Positions 12,112 through 60,760 are shown, numbered from the whole stretch's first letter. The stretch: DNA of 60,760 nucleotides, filler included, from Basidiobolus ranarum (GCA_040143965.1; 5 parts of 5 records of this genome joined end to end with filler, not necessarily neighbours in it), one strand, 5' to 3'. Notes: generated from the sequence alone by a model not told the origin. Numbers and translations are program-made.

Positions 12112-12211
12112 NNNNNNNNNNNNNNNNNNNNNNNNNNNNNNNNNNNNNNNNNNNNTTAATTAATTAANNNNNNNNNNNNNNNNNNNNNNNNNNNNNNNNN
12201 NNNNNNNNNNN
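12112..12211. other. Artificial contig linker
   Basis: N44-TTAATTAATTAA-N44, a multi-frame stop spacer. Confidence 0.98.
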
Positions 12212-24294: not shown

Positions 24295-24394
24295 NNNNNN
24301 NNNNNNNNNNNNNNNNNNNNNNNNNNNNNNNNNNNNNNTTAATTAATTAANNNNNNNNNNNNNNNNNNNNNNNNNNNNNNNNNNNNNNNNNNNN
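24295..24394. other. Artificial contig linker
   Basis: N44-TTAATTAATTAA-N44. Confidence 0.98.
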
Positions 24395-24452: not shown

Positions 24453-24525
24453 GGACTGATAGCTCAGTGGTTAGAGCACCTTGCTAGAGTGAAGGAGGTC
24501 CCAGGTTCAAATCCTGGCCAGACCA
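24453..24525 (+). pseudogene. tRNA-like sequence (pseudo-tRNA) in a repeat context
   Basis: 73 nt with A-box TAGCTCAGTGGTTAGAGC and perfect T arm CCAGG-TTCAAAT-CCTGG. Two mismatches in the acceptor stem, a G-G in the anticodon stem, and anticodon AGA (Ser) without a long variable arm. Confidence 0.75.
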
Positions 24526-36463: not shown

Positions 36464-36563
36464 NNNNNNNNNNNNNNNNNNNNNNNNNNNNNNNNNNNNN
36501 NNNNNNNTTAATTAATTAANNNNNNNNNNNNNNNNNNNNNNNNNNNNNNNNNNNNNNNNNNNN
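36464..36563. other. Artificial contig linker
   Basis: N44-TTAATTAATTAA-N44. Confidence 0.98.
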
Positions 36564-48617: not shown

Positions 48618-48717
48618 NNNNNNNNNNNNNNNNNNNNNNNNNNNNNNNNNNNNNNNNNNNNTTAATTAATTAANNNNNNNNNNNNNNNNNNNNNNNNNNN
48701 NNNNNNNNNNNNNNNNN
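48618..48717. other. Artificial contig linker
   Basis: N44-TTAATTAATTAA-N44. Confidence 0.98.
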
Positions 48718-50233
48718 ATATATCCTGAGTTAAAAGGGTTTGGCTAGTGGACTAACTGTCCACATGAGTGTCGTATAACCATCAACGTAGATAGAGCAAA
48801 AAGACTGGGGAGTTAGACCTATGGGCCGTTGACTCACTGGGGAGAAATGATTGCCTGCGCTATTGATTTGTTTAAGGTGGGCCATTTTAGTGAGTGATGG
48901 GAAGTTACCATATATGTACTCGGTTAAACTTTCACATTAAGTATACTCCGAGAGCTGTAGAACATTCCATTGGGGCACTCGCGACCCATGCTCTACTGGG
49001 CCTAGGAACCTTACATCGATCCAGTCTATATAGGGGGTTAATTTGAGCGTACCAGGTTATACTAGACTGATCCAACACAACGTGGTATACTCGATTAAGT
49101 TTAGGCAAAGTTTAACCCACCACGGCTGTCACGGTACATTGACTCAGGAACAATGAAGATGGTAGTTTGATATGCTCGTAGATGTCACTTGATTTAAGTA
49201 TGAGGTGGGTGTACAGGGATTGGAAATACAAAGTTTGTAGAATGAACATGAACGAAACCAGGTCTTTTCTTGGACAAGCAACATTGGTCTGTTTAGACAG
49301 TGGCAGTATACTTGTTACTGACTAGCCACCGTCACACTGTCCAGTGGACAGACGAGTACGAAGTTACACACATGAATTTGTATGAGGCATCATGAAATGG
49401 GTTATGAGTTATACACCAGGGCTTCAACATGGTCTCAAGCATATCTCCAGATTTTGGGATTAGGAATTTGGCACAAATGTCAACCTCAATTTCATGCTGC
49501 TTTATGTACATGCCAGATTTACTATATTCACACTGTTGCATATGAAAGATTCTTACAAAAGTATAAATATGGTGATGGTTTCAATGCTGGGCTTGATCCA
49601 AACTTGGTGATTATTAGCTGTGGGCTCCTCTTGCAGAAAAAATATATAGATGCTTTGCATAAGGTCCATAACAGCAAGTGCAGTGCTAGCTACAGACACT
49701 TTTTTGTTTTCCAACAACGTGTTTCTATACTAATGTGAACAATATAAGGCGGTTGTTTTGATTCTAAATACAAAAGAATTAAGGATCCGATCTATGAGGT
49801 GATCATCTAGCCCATAGCAAAGGACTAGACTACATTCCATGCAGGTTGGCTGGCGAAACGAATTCCTTATTCAATAAATCAGAATAAGAGCTATTGAAAA
49901 TTATATACCTGCCACTACAAGTGTAATAAAATTCAGAAATCGTCGTTTGGTGGCACTGATGTAACCAGTGAGTCATTTTATAATAGCATTTTCTTGGGTT
50001 TCATCAATTTGTGCTATCGTCAGCATCTACTACTGCCTAACAGCAAATAGATGCTGTTGATCATCTATCACAACGAGATAAAAAAATGATTTCTCCCTAT
50101 ATAAGACCCCGATACTGCTGCACATACGTTGTGGTTCTTCCAGCTCATCTCTTGGAATATAGCTCACTGGTACTGTTTATTCTGATAATTATTGTAACGT
50201 TTTTGCTTTTTCTTTTAGTTCGTGTGTGAAAAA

Positions 50234-51762
50234 ATGGGTACACTACAAGTTGCTGCTTATACGACAAGCATAGTTGTTTGCGTTGGTTTTGCCTTGTTTG
50301 CTTTGATTTGGAGTCGCAAGTTAAAGGAAAAGAATAAGGACGCTGACTTCTTCCTGACCGCTAGAAATTCTCAACCAACTGCAAAAATTATGTGGAGTTT
50401 TTATGCTGCTGCTGTTGGTGCATGGTAAGATCCGGTTTCTTGAGTAATACTCCATAGTTGTTTTATAGCTTGATTTCCTACAGGACTCTATTTGGCCCGC
50501 CTAGCTACGCATTATATGCTGGAATTCTAGGAATAACATTTTACGCTATCTCATGTGGAATTCCCATATTTCTCGTTGCATTCTTTGGTGGTAAAATCCA
50601 AGAACGTTTTCCCAGAGTTCAATCAATGGGTGACTTTGTTCGTTTGCGTTTCTGCCCTACACTTCAGGCTTTAGTCACCCTGATTATGCTGTTTAACATG
50701 AGTATTGGTCTGGCTGCGGAATACACATCAATTGGAGATCTCTTTGAGACAGTGATTGGAAGCAACCGTATACCTATCGTTCTGGTCATTGGCATATCCA
50801 CAATGCTGTACACGGCGTCAGGTGGTCTGTCAGTCTCCATCATTACCGATCAGGCCCAAGCCATTTTCAGTCTACTGTTTGTAGTGATCATGGCGATATA
50901 TATCGCAGTCACTTTCCGCGTTCCACTGTCATCGGAACTTCCTCCGGAAATTGCTCCAAATTACTATGGCTATTCTTCAATAATAGTTATGCCAATTTCG
51001 TTATCCTGCGCATCCTTTTATAACGAAGGATTTTGGCAACGTGTTTGGGCTTCCGCTGATGATCGTTCACTTAGAACTGGAGCTCTCTTGGCTATGGGAA
51101 TGGTAACAGTTGTTATTTTTTTCCTTGGATTTTGTGGATTTTTAGCTGCTTGGGCGGGATTAAATATCTCTAACCCTAACACAGTACTCTTCACCCTTCT
51201 TGGAGCCGGAGGTGAAGCACCTATTTGGATTACGGTGTTAGTAACAGTTTTAGCTGCTACTATGAACCAGTCCGCTGTTGATAGTTTACAAAATGCACTC
51301 GTGGATAGCGTTTCTTCGGTACTATTGAAGGGAAAATCTGTGTGGTGGTCGCGTCTTGTTGTTGTCATTGTCAACATACCACTGATAATCATCTCTTTAC
51401 AAGGATATCCAGTGATGAATCTGTTCTTACTATCGAATATGGTTGCGTCGTGTTGTACCTGACCCATTCTACTTGGTCTCTCTCGTCGCCTACAACCTTA
51501 TGTGACTAGCGGTGCTGTCGTATCTGGGTGGATCATATCTTTCCTTTCGGTTCTTGTATATGGAGCAATCCATCAGGGAAATGTTGGTGATGGCCTTCAT
51601 TTTACTTTCTTTGGTGAGTATGATTGGCCACCGTTTTTATTAGCGATTGTATTTTCAGTTATTGGCGTATTTCTGTATGGAATCCCAGCCCGTTACATTC
51701 GTGGTCCCGGACGTAACGTATTCGATCACGAAGTAGATGTTCCAGTATTGAACAAAAAGTAG
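50234..51762 (+). CDS. Sodium:solute-symporter-family (Dur31/NCU01977-like) transporter, putative thiamine or thiamine-precursor transporter; contains an in-frame TGA at 51460-51462
   Basis: Exon 1 50234-50424, intron 50425-50483, exon 2 50484-51762. Motifs FFLTARNSQ, YTASGGLSVSIITDQAQ, FWQRVWAS and SAVDSLQNA. 389 aa to the TGA, 489 aa if read through (...ASCCT*PILLGL...). Substrate inferred from the adjacent TPP aptamer. Confidence 0.85.
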
Positions 51763-51906
51763 AGCCTTTTCGGACCATGAAATCCTCAGATTACATTTTC
51801 TTGGTTGAAATTGAGAATTTGAGGATTTTGCAGATAATTTTTATTTCTTTTTCCAATTTCATTTTCGTCATTTGCCTTGTTATTCAAGATGTATCGAATA
51901 CAGACT

Positions 51907-52028
51907 GACAACTAGGGGTGCTCTGTGACATTTCATACTGAGGTAAGGGTCAGTGAGATGTTGCAAATGGGCTGAGATTATACCCTCGGAACCTGACCAG
52001 GATAATTCCTGCGAAAGGGAAAGTTGTC
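51907..52028 (+). ncRNA. TPP (thiamine pyrophosphate) riboswitch aptamer in the 3' region of the transporter gene
   Basis: P1 GACAACT (51907-13)/AGTTGTC (52022-28); P2 GGGGT/ACCCT; long P3 TGTGACATTTCA..CTGA/TCAG.TGAGATGTTGCA; conserved GCTGAGA; P4/P5 ACCTGACCAGGATAATTCCTGCGAAAGGGA matching the TPP consensus. Confidence 0.95.
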
Positions 52029-53241
52029 TAGTATTCTGATAATTTAACCTTATTTTGTAGTCTCAATAATAAATTATTTATATTCTGTTCCTAATTTCTA
52101 TTGACTGTTGGTTAGAGTAGTATCCGGACTTCTTGGGTGCGGGGCAACCTCAGATACCAGTTTGAAGACGATATATTGAATTCAAACACATTCTCGGATT
52201 CATTGCTTACAATGATCGGGAAGACAGCATTAATGTAGTTATTGATAGTTTGGCTCGCTCATGTCTGTGCTATGAAGCTTTACTTCCTGGTTATCAAGGT
52301 TAATTTGTTAGTCAAGAGACTTGATCTACTATGGTGTGGTGTGGTGAAGTAATAGTATTAAAATACATACACTGATCATGCCTATATAGAGAGTAGAATG
52401 CTTTTATCATTTGAATAAAACGAAAGAAAGTACTTGTGATGAGTTGTTTAAAATGCCAAGTTGTATCACGTTATACGAGGACTTCCAGGGTTACATTTCG
52501 AAGTAAGACTGGCTTTAGGTAGTTGAGATTTATTTTAAGCTGCACTACCATGAGATTCTTATTCTTATGAATCATTTATTTTCTCCCAGGATTGGTGTTC
52601 TACAAAAATAAGTAAAAGAAAAAATACTAACATAATGATTGGACTTTTCGAAAATGGCTTAACTTTCAATATACTCAATGGAAATAGAGGGATTTTGTGT
52701 AGAATTTTCTCTTGAGTTTGTGCAATCGGAATGTGCTAATCGTATCTGTACTGCTAGAACTATATACATAGTAAATAATAAATCGAAATGTTTATTTGTT
52801 TACAACGCTCACTACCAATCGAACTTAAAAGAACTGATAATATATGCCTCGGAATGAAGAAATTACTACCATATAGAGTTTCATGGGTATCACTAGTAAC
52901 ACATAAATATGTCACCTTAACAAGTATGTACAACCAGTTCCGAAGACTCAATCAGTTATTTAAATCAGCCAATGGAGTGTCAGAAGTCTCTCAAACAAAG
53001 CAATGTACAAGTATTAATGTGTTGCAGAGCACAAGCTTGCGTATTGAGATGCATGGGGATTTAGTGATGACCATACTGATGGAAGTGATGAGAATGGCAC
53101 AAGTAGTGGGGGGAGATGATGACAAAGGAGCTAGTTGTGGACTAAATAGTTTGCATACCGGACTTAGCCGGTCATCTATATATGGAAGGCAAGTCAACTC
53201 ACTCTATTACTCTACAAAACATCGCATCACACCACCGCCCC

Positions 53242-53427
53242 AATCTCCACCATTTTGAGGAAGAAAGGAAGGTGATGGTTTCTTGGAGATATCAGACCAG
53301 AGAAGGGTCCCTGAAGAAATGCTGGTCGTACCCGAGGTGCAGAACTCTTGACACACCCATTTTAGCCTAGTGTGAGATCGATCGATTTGATATATGAATT
53401 GGTCAAATTTCTATTTAGGGCGATCAT
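53242..53427 (+). repeat. Dispersed repeat; inverted copy at 60575-60760
   Basis: 186 nt ungapped manual alignment to the reverse complement of 60575-60760 with about 15 mismatches. Confidence 0.92.
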
Positions 53428-53890
53428 AGATGAAGCAAGAATACGACTCTTCATATGAAGTCAGATTTATAGCTAAAGCAATAGAGATTTTGTCAAGCAC
53501 CAATGTAATAATGTATAAACATCAATTTATTACTATTAAGCATGATTTCTTATGAAACATTGAACGATTGGCGCTAGAAGGAATACTGGTTTTATAATAA
53601 AATGTTTTACGTAGGTGGTTTGTTTATGTGGTACAGTCTCAACCGAAAGTCATCATAAATATGATAGAATATTTACTCACAATACCTACAATTAAAATAA
53701 TGTTCAAAAAGTACAAACATACGCATACACAATGGCAACGAAATAAAGGGACTTGGGCGAAAAATATATATCCGAGAGAGGTACGGAAATTGAGGTTGCA
53801 CACATGCGTATTTTGATTAGATTAAAATGTATGGAAACAAGTGCAATTTTCAATTTGCAGTAGAAGATGGTCGCTTTACATGAAAATCAA

Positions 53891-56800
53891 TCATGTCGTT
53901 TCTTGAAACTCCGAGCAGTTTTTCGTTAACCATTTTTGAAGCATCTGATTCAATTCTCCAAGTTTTACTGGCTTGGCTAAGAAGTCGTTCATTCCTGATG
54001 TCATACACTCCTTTTGTGTACTTTCAATACAACTGGCACTTAAGGCTACAATAGGAATATCCCGAACTGGTGCATCAAATAACTGTCGAACATCTCTGGT
54101 AGCTTCAAATCCATCTTTTATAGGCATAGCACAGTCCATTAAAACCAGAGAGAACTGATCTCCGGGTGCTTGTTTTAATAGATCCACCGCTTCAGCACCG
54201 TTTTTGGCTCCTGTTGAACGATAACCTAGGCGTTTCAATTGTCGATGTACGACCTCCATATTGACAGGATTATCTTCGACCACTAGAATCATATACCTAC
54301 CATTAACATGAACTGCATCACCAACTACGCCCACTTCCACATCTTTTTTACCAAGGCCACCAGGCGCCTTTTTAGCACTTGTGTTTAATAGCTTTCGGGA
54401 ATTCTTCTTTTTTGTAGTGATCGGTGAAATGGGTGACACTGTATCAGAATCATGAGGTGGTGGGGTGAGCGGTCCGGTATTTAGGTGAAGTACTTCAGAT
54501 GATTTTAGCTTGATATCTAGTTCCAGCTTCTCTTGATAAAAGTTTAGAAGCGCACACGTCAACTTAAATTTAGTCACTGGCATCGATATCCCAACTACTG
54601 TATCATCGAATTGGCTCACGACGGTTTGTGCTAAATGAAGTGATGATAGTGGAAATATCAATAGAATGTGGAGTGTAGGATCAAGAGCCTTAAGCTTGGC
54701 CACTGTATCCGAAAGTGAATTAACGGCTTCGTTTCCTGTTACATTTAGAAACACGCACTGGAAAGGATCGGATGTAGACTGGGTCTGCTTCAAAAGTCCA
54801 AGTCCCTCACTGTACGTTTTAGCTTGGACATGCGACCGGACTAGATCTTGAATCAACATGGCAATTGAGGTATCTTCAGCATCTCCAGCACATATTGTCA
54901 AGCATTTCTGTGTATGGATCATATCTAAATATTTGCTTTCAATCACGCGGTTAGGGTCTGAATCAGTAAAATGCCAAGTGAACCAAAACGAGGACCCTTC
55001 GCCAAGGGTAGATTCCACGCCAATTTGCCCTTCACCAATTTCAACCAACTCTTTACATATTGCTAACCCAAGTCCCACTCCATCGTATTTACGAGTCATG
55101 GATCCATCGATTTGATGGAAAGAGCGGAAGAGATGCTTATTAATGGCCTCTTTAGCAATGCCGATACCTGTATCTGTAACCCTAAATCGAAGAGTAATTC
55201 TATTGGTGTCTAGAATACTAGATTCGATTTGAGGCTCTAGCCTCTCCACGTGGATGGAAACCTGTCCTTGGTCTGTAAACTTGAATGCATTACTTAGAAG
55301 ATTCATTAGTACCTGCTGAACTCGAGCAGAGTCTCCAATAACGTTCTTCGGTACGTTCGGCTCACAGGTGCATGTTAATTTAAGGCTTTTCTCCTCCTTT
55401 TGTTTGGAGAAGACATTCATGGTAGATTGGAGTAGATCGGACAGACTGAAATCCATAGGTTTAAGTTTAATCTTTCTAGCTTCCAATTTGGCCATATCAA
55501 GGATGTCATTCACCACTCGTAGCAACACATCGCTGGCAGTAAGCATGATCTTCAACATCTCCCTTTGTTCCAATGTCAATTGGGTATCTTCAAAAGCACT
55601 CACTAGGCCGATAATGGCATTCAGTGGAGTTCGGATTTCTGCCAAATAGAATATATTAGAGTTATGAATCACAAGTGAAACTTCAAATGCAAGGCTTTAC
55701 CATGTGAGGTGTTTGCGAGAATAACACTTTTCGCTCGATTGGCGGCATTTACTGCTTCCATTTGAATTTCTTGGTTAATTTTTTCGCTAACCAGTTTATC
55801 ATGAGATATAGCTAAAGCAACTTGTGTGGCTATCTGCTGAATCAAAGTACATTGTAGTTCGCTCCATTCTAAACCAGGTACGTGACGTGCTGTGATCCAA
55901 CCCCAGCTCTCATCATCAAGCATGATCGGAATTCCAATAAAAGCACACTCTTGGCTAAAGTCAGGAGGAAATAGGGTGGCTATGTTTACACCATTCTCGA
56001 CAGTTTGGTCGATGTGTCGAAATGGCTCGCTCAGTTGATCCGAACTATAACCAAAGGTACGATTTAAGAATGAAGAGGTGGTTACGTTTCCGCGGAGTGC
56101 TTCAGCCTTGACTGTAAATTTGGGTTGATCGGTAACATTATGGCATATCAATATGCAGTCAGCATCCAATGCTTTTCTAACTTCATCAGCTGTCTCCTGC
56201 AGGATATCCTCAAGACCAAACCTAGCCCGGATTTTTCCTGAAATGTTGAGCACCATTTGCTTGCATTCTGTTTGCATCCGCTGTTGTATAAGAAGCTCAT
56301 GTCTCAGCTTGCTCAATATGACGTTCGTACGAACACGTGCGAGTAGCTCTTGGGCTGAAAACGGCTTAATGAGATAGTCATCCGCACCTGCCTCCACACC
56401 CTCAGCAGAAGCCGCGGGGCCTGCTCGAGCTGACAAAAAGATAATAGGAATGGTGGCAGTTTTAGGATTTTCTCGAAATGCTTTCAATAGCCCTAATCCA
56501 TCTAAATGAGGCATCATTACATCTATGCAAAGGTTCGGAGTGTTAATGAACGTTCAAAAGTGAAAATAAAAGTTTCACTTACCCGAGAGGACCAAGTCTG
56601 GAACTCGGAAGTTGATAATCTCTAATGCTTCAAGCCCATTCGTAGCTAATAAAACCTCGAACTCATCTTCTAGTAAGGTGTATATGTAACTACGCATATC
56701 ACTATTGTCATCGGCTAATAGAACACAAGGCTTTTGGATACTAGAATCAAGAGTACAGGCAGGAAGATTAGTGCTGTCCGGTAAACTCACATGCTCCTCA

Positions 56801-58814
56801 ATACGAGGTTGAGAATCCGTGGTAGTAGAGCCCCATTGCTGCATTTCATCTAGAAACAGAGTTGCGGTTTTCTTGATTCTAATATCAGGCAATTTCGGCG
56901 TATCACCTACAATAAACTCTGGGGAGATATGGGATTTTCCAGTTGGTATTGTCACATTGAATGCAGTTCCGACCAACTCCTTTGACTCGACATCAATTGT
57001 TCCCAAGTGGAAACGGACTAACTCCTGAACAAGGGCGAGTCCAATACCGGTGCCCTCATAAGAACGAGCTTCTACACTTCTTACACAATAGAAACGATCG
57101 AAAAGATGTTTCATGTCCTCTTTAGAAATGCCTATACCAGTATCAATCACTGATAACTGTATTGCCTCAACGGTTTCCCCATCTGGCATCTCCATAATAG
57201 TGGGCTTCAAGCTGACCGATACAATACCACTTTTGGTGAATTTAAAAGCGTTCGAAACTAAATTGAGTAAGATCTTCTCCCACATATCCTGATCAACATA
57301 GACAGGAAGTTCAGTAATCATCTCTGGGACATTTATAACAAACTCAACTCCAAGGGTAACTGCCGTTGATTCGAAAGAAGAAAGCAACTCTCGAGTAAAC
57401 TGTGAAATATTGGTTTGTTGAAAAGCAGCAGTATTCTTTCCAGCCTCGATTTTGCTAAACTCAAGAAGAGTATTCACCAGTTTTAGCAGACGTCTGGCAT
57501 TCCTTTGGACCATCAGCATATTCTTTCTAGCTTTAGGAGGGAGGGTATGATCATGCAAAGTCTGCTCAATAGGGCTAAGAATCAAAGGCAATGGTGTCCG
57601 AAGTTCGTGCGATACATTCTGAAAAAAAGCAGTCTTAGACCGATTCAATTCGGCCAAGGTTTCTATTTGTTTTTTCTCCTCTTCACAAGTAATACCCGCT
57701 TTAATTGCTGTTGTAACATACGCAGCGAGATGTGAAAAGAAATCTTGGTAATCACTATCAAGAAGTCGTAAAGTGTGTAGTCCACAGACCATCACTGCCG
57801 ATATCCGTCCTTCTGGCGCCCTAGAAATGAATAATGGAAGAAACACAGCTCTAGTACCATCGGGTAGTCTAATAAGCTCCGCTTCACCAGAAGCAGCAAC
57901 TTTGGCAACTGGCCAGTAAGCTGGGCAAGTATCATCATTATCCTTGATGGATACTAAATGTTCAGGAATGCAAGGATTGATTACACCGTCAGTAACATCT
58001 TCACCGAAACTACTTGTTACGAGCTCCAATGTCTTCGAGCCGTTCGATTGATAGGGGTAATAAATCATGGACCATGGTACATCAGTATTATTCTTCTTCA
58101 GAGCAGATGTAACTGAGTAACATGCTTCTTGATGGTTTTGAGCAACACGAGTAAGCTTGCCAACTTCATTCAGCGCAGTCAATCGCCTTTGACCAATATA
58201 CTGTTGCGTCTGCTCAAAAGTGGTATTTAACGCACCAACAACTTTACCATCTGTATCGAATATCGGTGAAATAGAGAAGCGAAACCACGTCTCTTCTTCG
58301 TAACCAGCTCGTTGCAACAAAAATATTTGATTCTCCAAGAAAGCGCCTTTTCCAGTTTCATATGCTTTTGTAATCAGAGGTTTCATAATATGCCATATTT
58401 CGGCCCAAACTTTATGCCCAGGCTCGCCAAAGGCTTTTGCAAAAGGGTTATTAATCAGTCGAAAGCAATGCATTATGCAATAGTTTTACCTTCAGGATGT
58501 TTAGTACCAAGAATTGCTGACCAAGCTTGATTGTATAACAGCAAGTCATCTTCACCGTAATATATAGCCATTGGGAAAGAAGAATGAAGAACGAGATTTA
58601 AAGTCCATTTAAAACAATCTGACCAATTTTCTTTCGGTCCTAAAGAAGTTTGAGACCAGTCTTTAAGTTCAACCAGCTCTGAAACTGTAACCCCAGGGGC
58701 TTTCAATTCTGGCACGTAGCTTTCCACATCGTTGGTATTAAACTTAAGATATGTCATAATATTCGAAAAGCTATGTTCTTCAGAAGAACAGTGAGTGGGG
58801 GCTGTTTTCAACAT
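53891..58814 (-). CDS. Dual hybrid histidine kinase (PAS/GAF-like, HisKA-HATPase, REC, GAF, HisKA-HATPase, degenerate REC, REC), 4 exons, about 1581 aa
   Basis: Exons 58814-58490, 58433-56583, 56522-55701 and 55638-53891 sum to 4746 nt in frame. Two H-boxes (VSHELRTPL, TSHEIRTPL), two N/G-box sets (NLVSNAFKFT, DTGIGI, GTGIGL; NLLSNAFKFT, DTGIGI, GVGLGL), receivers ADDN..SDVMMP..KPF and VEDN..MDCAMP..KP. Confidence 0.93.
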
Positions 58815-60574
58815 ATACTTCAAAGAAGTCTGAGGACTTGAGAAGTACTGTAAGAGATTTGAACCGAGTGCTTATACAAAAACTACTATTCTATCGAATG
58901 GATATAATATAAATGCAACTATTCACCACCAAGGGGAATTGATAGAGTAAAATAAGTCCAAAAGGATAGAAAAACAAATTGAAGCGAAGGCAACGAGGTA
59001 AGGACTTGGGATTAATATAAAAAGATTGCTAGGATCATCGGACTTTAAAATACCATACACCAAAGTGAGCCATGGGGAGGCAAAAATTCCCAACTGTTCT
59101 GAAGCAGCAATTGCAAAATCGATGAAGGCAATAAAAGATTATCCATGAAAGTATATTCACTCAATGCTTGTATAATTTAAAGAATCCTATATTGTTAAAG
59201 TGGAAATCCACATAAATAAATCTGGGGATTCCATTTTTAGCATTCATTTAATTATTCTAAAGAGGGAAGGTAGAGAAAACCAATAAGTATACACGGTATC
59301 GCTGACCGACATTAATTAGAATTTCTCTAGAATGAAGATCAACTTATTTGCTGAGGAAACCAGTTGCGAGAGACCAAAAGAATCAGTGGATCAGTCGGAT
59401 TAAGAGTGCACGGAGAATATGAACACAAATAGAGATATTCTTTATTTTGTATAGTTAGAAGAATTTGATCGGTGATCCGTTCCAATTTGCTAATACTTTT
59501 GTGGTTTAGTCGGCCCGCTTGCGTTTATCCAGTAAGTTTTTTGTGTGTCAAGTGGTTTTGTTGTTTGGAGTGCAAGGCGATTAGAGTCCAGAATATGAAG
59601 CCTGTGTTCCTCTACGTGACGAATCTACTAACATAAATAGGTAAACTACTGGCGGTCACTCGATATGTACCTACTGATCAGTATCAAGACCCATCTTATG
59701 CACCTCGTATTACGTCCAAGTCATCATGACCATTCCAATACCCTCTGCAACAGTCATGGTGGTGGATTCTTCGATACTTTGAATGCTTTTCTGGATCTAG
59801 AAATTGGTGCTACGTCCACATCAGCTAATTGAGCATCCTGGAATACCCTACCCCAAAATTGCTGACCTCACCATTGAATGGGATTGTGGCTATATATATA
59901 TATATTGATCCGCCACTCAACCACGAAGCCACGAAGCTAACCCCTTCATCAGTGTTTCTCACGAGAAAAAATCGCTAGCCATAAAACTAAATATCCATTC
60001 ATGTTGATTCCATTCAAACTTGACCGAATGCCATTTGGGTTGCACATCCATTTAGTTTCAAACATGTTTATGGATGGCACTACTCCTAAACCTTACTAAT
60101 TCCATTGCATTGACCAAGTGGAATTAACCCACCAAGCGCCCTTTAGCCTGGCCAAAAGGATGTTTTGATAAGAATGTGAGTTGGAGATTACTGGCTTTTT
60201 CATTAAATAACTCTTTCTATGATGGCTGTAGAGTTTTGCTTAACTCTTAGATTGGTTAGTATGCTATCTTCAACCCTAGATAATGACAGATTAGTACATA
60301 TGTTGCTTGTGCAACTAAACTGCATTCATCTTTTTGGTTCCAGTTTCTTTCGTTAAATGGCAGGTGAAGAGAATAGTCAGAATCTTTAGTCAGTTGGCAT
60401 TGACGAAGACATTAGTGCCGACTAAACTGAGTTGCAGTAATGATTCGATCTTAAATATATAAAAACTACCTGGACACCATGCTACTCTACGTCGACAACA
60501 GGATTCAACTGGCTATCTTTGAGTGATATGTTGGCCGTTGTTCAAGGGAGAAAGGAGTCACTGGCCTTCACTTA

Positions 60575-60760
60575 ATGATCGCTCCAAATAGAAATTCGAT
60601 CAACTCATATATCAAATCGATCGATCTCACACTAAGCTAAAATAGAAATGTCAAGAGTTCTGCACCTCGGGTACGACCAGCATTTCTTCAGGGACCCTTC
60701 TCTGGTCTGATATTTCCAAGAAACCATCGCCTTCCCTTCGTCCTCAAAGTGGTGGAGATT
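60575..60760 (-). repeat. Dispersed repeat; inverted copy of 53242-53427, cut by the window end
   Basis: Reverse complement matches 53242-53427 at about 92% by manual count. Confidence 0.92.

Follow-up and report, generated by a model that had tools for sequence, protein, structure and literature searches.

An in-frame UGA codon in a sodium:solute symporter gene of Basidiobolus ranarum, probably a recent nonsense change

A transporter gene of Basidiobolus ranarum (GCA_040143965.1) is interrupted by a single in-frame TGA codon. It was found in the window, the whole 60,760-nt stretch of DNA that was analysed. The interruption is probably best read as a recent single-base nonsense change (Cys codon TGY to TGA) in this lineage, in a multi-copy transporter family. 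The stop was found in no relative that covers the site. The rest of the gene is intact, and neither a selenocysteine insertion element, a stimulatory RNA structure nor an intron that would remove the stop was found.

Gene model and the in-frame stop

The window contains paired N runs (44 N, 12 bases, 44 N) at 12112-12211, 24295-24394, 36464-36563 and 48618-48717, with a spacing of ~12.15 kb. From these recurring runs the window consists of five separate ~12-kb pieces that are not contiguous. The transporter gene is on the last piece (48718-60760; 12,043 nt). The only tRNA in the window, a tRNA-Ser(AGA) at 24453-24525 (+), is near the beginning of the third piece, ~60 nt past an N spacer.

The gene contains 491 codons in two exons, with exactly one in-frame TGA. 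This codon was read directly from the sequence at 51460-51462, in frame with exon 2. The same frame is open from 50458 up to the premature TGA and reopens straight after it. The features of the gene and of its 3' flank are listed below.

50234..50424 (+): exon 1 of the SSS-family transporter, with the ATG at 50234; 63 codons and 2 bases (sequence; tblastn with P0002 residues 1-64, 82.8%)
50425..50483 (+): 59-nt intron, GTAAGA...ACAG, splitting a Trp codon (sequence; the joined frames match P0002)
50484..51762 (+): exon 2, whole (sequence; tblastn with P0002)
50484..51459 (+): exon 2 before the premature stop; identity to P0002 of 89.8% over 325 aligned full codons (tblastn, alignment, Pfam SSF PF00474)
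51460..51462 (+): in-frame TGA, whose next base, C, opens an invariant Pro codon; opposite Cys390 of P0002, in predicted helix 374-394 (sequence, alignment, model)
51463..51759 (+): continuation of the frame for 99 codons after the stop, with 83.8% identity to P0002; predicted to encode the tail of one helix, two long helices and a short one (alignment, model)
51760..51762 (+): TAG, the normal stop of the full-length frame (sequence)
51904..52038 (+): TPP riboswitch aptamer (Rfam RF00059; 59.5 bits against a gathering score of 54.3; E 3.7e-09)

The closest orthologue, P0002, is a protein of 492 aa from Basidiobolus meristosporus with 88% identity to the window gene. A tblastn search of the window with P0002 retrieved two gapless segments. 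Residues 1-64 aligned at 82.8% identity and residues 65-489 at 88.2% over 425 columns. The intron is supported by the ORFs at 50219-50428 and 50458-51462, which join as ...GAW/TLFGPPSY, the same as in P0002. No second copy of the transporter was retrieved from the window by tblastn; this gene alone matches. Because both segments are gapless, the TGA is the sole lesion in the gene, and the absence of other lesions claimed in the earlier note is borne out. That note had also quoted the string TCG TGT TGT ACC TGA CCC ATT CTA CTT GGT CTC, which begins at 51448, and had counted 99 further sense codons, which are present at 51463-51759 before the TAG. The post-stop frame is identical to P0002 at 83 of its 99 residues, far above chance.

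A public gene model of 278 aa (P0005; NCBI and UniRef) is 100% identical to part of the gene. It runs from an internal Met to ...SCCT and ends at the premature TGA, so the stop is already reflected in the public model. P0005 is the only identical public protein and the sole member of its cluster. It comes from one contig of 12,043 nt, as long as the piece that carries the gene, and is therefore probably not independent support for the base. The post-stop peptide has no match in the protein cluster collection.

Transporter family, predicted structure and the adjoining TPP aptamer

The gene is a sodium:solute symporter (PF00474, SLC5/SSS fold) by both Pfam match and fold. The read-through product scored 26.3 bits against Pfam SSF PF00474, with a cut-off of 22.8. 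The only NCBIfam match was the SSS superfamily TIGR00813 (E 6.5e-15), under its own cut-off. An AlphaFold2 model of P0002 from 45 sequences had a pLDDT of 92.1 and a pTM of 0.91. The model was matched by Foldseek to CHT1 (8j74; TM 0.76), SGLT2 (TM 0.74) and SiaT (TM 0.69). A sequence search of the PDB retrieved weak N-terminal matches only.

Among 67 relatives retrieved from the protein database, Basidiobolus proteins rank first, at 88, 73, 72, 63, 59 and 53% identity. After these come proteins from chytrids, Mortierellomycota and green algae at 38-50% identity. The paralogues from Basidiobolus meristosporus are P0004, P0006 and P0008, and the relatives from Basidiobolus ranarum are P0003, P0007 and the partial P0040.

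The P0002 model contains ~12 long helices. Cys390 is in the helix at 374-394, which is followed by helices at 406-428, 431-441 and 445-470. Termination would occur inside the third-from-last long membrane helix, with the loss of its final four residues and of the two long helices and the short one beyond it. The earlier note had placed about three hydrophobic helices after the stop. The model contains two long and one short helix there, and the end of the stop-bearing helix has to be added to that count. As judged from the model, the main product would be a truncated transporter that is probably inactive.

The TPP aptamer begins 142 nt downstream of the TAG of the transporter, on the same strand. 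The earlier note had called the transporter riboswitch associated. The aptamer does adjoin the gene, but it is located downstream of the TAG and is neither upstream of the gene nor inside it. No Pfam-matching ORF is encoded on the + strand after the aptamer before a convergent histidine-kinase gene, and an ORF at 52782-53255 has no family. With no such ORF, the aptamer may act from the 3' UTR of the transporter, which would be unusual for fungi. In known fungal systems, the aptamer is in the 5' UTR or in an internal intron, whereas here it is 142 nt past the stop codon. A sequence resembling a 5' splice site (GTAAGG; 51943-51948) is inside the long P3 insert of the aptamer.

Immediately after the TAG there is a 14-bp hairpin at 51776-51829 (+), with the arms GAAAUCCUCAGAUU and AAUUUGAGGAUUUU. 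The 141-nt 3' flank after the TAG has a folding z of -2.0, and 6 of 200 shuffles fold as well. The hairpin might be part of the expression platform of the riboswitch or of 3'-end formation.

The convergent gene is large (53891-58871; -) and encodes two successive sensor modules, each with GAF, HisKA, HATPase_c and receiver domains. Its first receiver domain is split over two same-frame ORFs at ~56553-56577, where GGTAAAT suggests a short intron.

PF00474 transporters with a TPP riboswitch include the algal SSSP and SSSQ, and the SSSQ group takes in 113 fungal homologues and N. crassa NCU01977 (PMC4260697). Dur31 of Candida is a thiamin transporter homologous to NCU01977 (PMC5997356). The window gene resembles SSSP/SSSQ, NCU01977 and Dur31 in its PF00474 domain and in the TPP aptamer that adjoins it. 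Its relatives in chytrids, Mortierellomycota and chlorophytes are a further likeness to the riboswitch-linked SSS transporters. The ~12 long helices of the P0002 model compare with 13 predicted for SSSP/SSSQ (PMC4260697). The gene belongs to a multi-copy family of sodium:solute symporters with a putative link to thiamine.

The stop column in relatives and readings of the UGA codon

Alignment A1 contained the window gene and 14 homologues. At the TGA column, six homologues have Leu, two have Ala (P0003 and P0004), two have Val, two have Ile, one has Pro and one has Cys (P0002). None of the 14 has a stop there. The residue after the column is Pro in 15/15 sequences of the alignment.

A metagenome scan retrieved 32 related loci at 31-55% identity. 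The best was 55% over a short segment, and the best at full length was 50%. None is Basidiobolus-like and some are near-duplicates of one another, and they served solely to read the codon at the site. The TGA column is spanned by 29 of the 32; L017, L021 and L032 fall short of the site. These 29 loci have Leu (10), Val (6), Ala (4), Phe (4), Pro (3) or Ile (2) at the column, and none has a stop or Cys. Cys is thus found in one of 43 relatives (14 homologues and 29 metagenome loci), the nearest orthologue P0002 only. The column is a variable hydrophobic position of a membrane helix and is not a redox site.

The earlier note had entertained recoding that is conserved, to be dropped if close relatives carry a sense codon. 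The orthologue and paralogue alignment found no TGA in any of the 14 homologues or the 29 covering metagenome loci. The closest orthologue has a sense codon (Cys) and no relative has a stop, so conserved recoding is refuted by the note's own criterion. Among the marks of programmed readthrough, coding conservation past the stop is present (83.8%), but a conserved stop is absent (0/14 and 0/29).

The earlier note had also pointed to UGA followed by C as the leakiest stop context, and this agrees with published yeast data. In yeast, UGA-C gives the highest readthrough among UGA-N contexts and favours near-cognate Cys-tRNA (PMC4748822; Beznoskova et al. 2016). In human cells, tRNA-Cys also promotes UGA readthrough (PMC10573299). 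The window gene has the same tetranucleotide as these yeast reporters, and the residue inserted by such a leak would be the Cys of P0002. Its context, in contrast, stems from the Pro codon (PMC4748822 for the reporters). The Pro codon is invariant after the column, so any stop there automatically has C at +4, and the leaky context needs no selective explanation. As the alignment reads, the +4 C is forced by the protein and need not have evolved for leakiness.

An advantage of making a little full-length transporter, at a tuned level, by near-cognate Cys- or Trp-tRNA decoding might have preserved the UGA-C. Past the stop the frame stays open, with conservation equal to that of intact genes, and the yeast preference for UGA-C and Cys-tRNA (PMC4748822) would suit such a role. 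Against this, the stop is absent from all 14 homologues and all 29 covering metagenome relatives, and the +4 C is imposed by the Pro codon. The 100 nt downstream also fold like shuffles (z = +0.10; an equal or better fold arose in 108 of 200 shuffles). Extended readthrough motifs include UGA-CUAG and CAR-YYA, and the CCC AUU after the window stop matches neither. We consider it quite unlikely that the UGA is kept by selection with full-length product made by recoding. Were it so, the most plausible route would be Cys-tRNA readthrough that restores the ancestral Cys and gives a low level of a thiamine-linked transporter; Sec would be far less plausible.

Selenocysteine would place CxxU where the orthologue has CxxC. 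The UGA is opposite Cys in the closest orthologue (SCCT-C-P against SCCT-UGA-P), which is the classic Sec/Cys signature, and some early-branching fungi use Sec (five among 1197 genomes; Mariotti et al., bioRxiv 10.1101/314781). The CxxU peptide raised in the earlier note does align with the Cys of P0002, but it mirrors a lineage-specific CCTC only. P0002 reads CCTC at the site, and the other Basidiobolus paralogues read CCAA, CFIL and CCGP. The column is variable, hydrophobic and in a membrane helix, and Cys or Sec is not found across homologues (1/14 homologues and 0/29 metagenome loci).

No SECIS family of Rfam had a match in 51300-53300 on either strand at E <= 10, which argues against Sec. 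A loose ad hoc pattern (NTGAN..AA..GA) yielded 2 matches, at 52439 and 53542 and thus a long way downstream, where 0.44 were expected; this is close to chance, as 27 of 300 shuffles reach 2. The hairpin at 51776-51829 was considered as a SECIS and rejected. It starts with AUGA, but it has no apical AA at the right distance, no 3' GA and no Rfam match.

The known Sec-using fungi are Harpellales (7/9 species), Bifiguratus and Gonapodya (PMC10386755; 10.1101/314781), which also counts against Sec here. Basidiobolus has no mention in the main text of 10.1101/314781, whose 1197 genomes may not have included it, and it is not among the users named in the text of PMC10386755. PMC9457484 gives 11 Sec-encoding genomes, and 10.1101/2021.02.26.433065 lists the B. 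meristosporus genome. All candidates for novel selenoprotein families in the screen of Mariotti et al. were discarded (10.1101/314781), a further point against Sec. The window gene resembles the fungal selenoprotein genes of that study in having an in-frame UGA opposite Cys in one homologue. It differs in having no SECIS match, a variable non-redox site, a family that is not a known selenoprotein family and a genus that is not among the reported users (10.1101/314781). We regard Sec as very improbable.

A-to-I editing of the mRNA in some life stage would convert UGA to UGG (Trp). In its favour, filamentous ascomycetes are known to repair premature stops by such editing (PMC10776026, PMC11156358). 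In these accounts, fungal editing strongly favours U at -1 and hairpin loops, it acts mostly on UAG and UAA, and the fungi named are ascomycetes only (PMC10776026, PMC11156358). The edited A is thus expected after U in a hairpin loop (PMC11156358), but the A of the window UGA is preceded by G. Shuffled sequences fold as well as the local 61 nt (z = +0.50), and no relative among the 14 homologues and 29 metagenome loci has Trp at the column. Editing appears extremely improbable.

An unrecognised intron might remove the stop, or TGA might be a sense codon in this organism. The stop is spanned by 103 in-frame GT/GC..AG pairs of 40-400 nt, but a GTRNGH donor is absent from all of them. Splicing at the shortest pair (60 nt; 51450-51509) would excise 20 codons, each aligned with a residue of the orthologue, and with them the invariant Pro and a Gly that is also invariant. 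The statement in the earlier note that no intron restores the frame therefore holds. As for a sense TGA, other ORFs in the window end at TGA, and the gene has exactly one in 491 codons. The histidine-kinase ORF at 53891-55696 ends at a TGA 15 residues past the receiver domain. Long ORFs for OYE, SDF and polysaccharide deacetylase span whole Pfam domains with no internal stop. The intron and alternative-code readings were ruled out by the donor motif, the orthologue alignment and the use of TGA elsewhere in the window, and we give them a negligible probability.

Origin, age and meaning of the probable nonsense change

The TGA may not be the only allele of the organism. It might reflect a wrong base call or consensus in a draft assembly that is broken into pieces, or a heterozygous site of which the contig retains a single haplotype. 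The assembly is fragmented, as the gene's own piece spans only 12,043 nt and abuts an N spacer. Apart from the TGA the gene has no flaw, and its post-stop part has no decay, as expected were the real codon sense. Zoopagomycota are often diploid-dominant, which favours the heterozygous site (PMC9457484). The other long genes in the window, however, contain whole Pfam domains in uninterrupted ORFs, which argues that base errors are not frequent. Single-base substitution errors in a consensus are also rare relative to real nonsense polymorphisms. An error or a collapsed site is unlikely.

The divergence after the stop bears on the age of the lesion. Identities before and after the stop position were compared with those of two intact pairs.

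Window gene and P0002: 89.8% (292/325) before, 83.8% (83/99) after
P0003 and P0004, both intact: 92.6% before, 72.3% after
P0006 and P0007, both intact: 86.5% before, 71.4% after

By this comparison, the post-stop part appears no more diverged than is expected for a less conserved C-terminal region. The 99 codons after the stop have no decay, which suggests that the change is young. The lack of downstream decay and the substitutions, which are all conservative, would fit continued selection on the full-length protein as well as a very young mutation.

A relative-rate count with P0003 and P0004 as outgroups gave 17 changes in the window lineage and 6 in P0002 (p = 0.035). With P0006 and P0007 as outgroups, the counts were 9 and 7; the skew was gone and is outgroup-dependent. 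Relaxed constraint may explain the skew of 17 to 6, as may gene conversion among the paralogues; the signal vanishes with the other outgroups. The paralogue pair P0003 and P0004 has the opposite skew, with 5 and 16 private amino-acid changes.

The earlier note had proposed TTA or TCA as the source codon. The ancestral codon was likely a Cys codon (TGT or TGC) instead, judging from the residue of the P0002 protein at the column. A single substitution converts either TGT or TGC to TGA, and TGT is used for both Cys residues a short way upstream. The lesion is single and absent from all relatives, and P0002 has a sense codon; both points support the more mundane explanation of the earlier note, either a nonsense change of one base or an error.

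In the nonsense change that we favour, the Cys codon would have become TGA by one base after the split from B. meristosporus. It would be recent, with nothing else in the gene decayed yet. Other family members are present in both sequenced Basidiobolus proteomes, and the loss of one copy would be tolerable. The gene would have at most an ordinary low-level UGA-C leak and no dedicated recoding device. Such a leak through near-cognate Cys-tRNA would be passive and, by analogy with yeast, would restore the ancestral Cys in a small full-length fraction.

The gene resembles a young nonsense allele or unprocessed pseudogene. It has a lone, lineage-specific stop that is one base from the codon deduced from the P0002 protein, it is otherwise intact, and paralogues are present. 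It differs in having no secondary lesions or decay so far.

For annotation, the public 278-aa P0005 is a fragment of a 491-codon, one-intron gene that begins at 50234 and has one nonsense codon. Were the stop to prove fixed and to be decoded with high efficiency, the gene would be a rare example of functional readthrough within a membrane helix of a fungal transporter. On present evidence the finding matters little, since the codon is probably a common kind of premature stop in one member of a transporter family with several copies. It also carries a caution, that a UGA aligned with Cys in a single nearest relative can mimic the signature of a selenoprotein.
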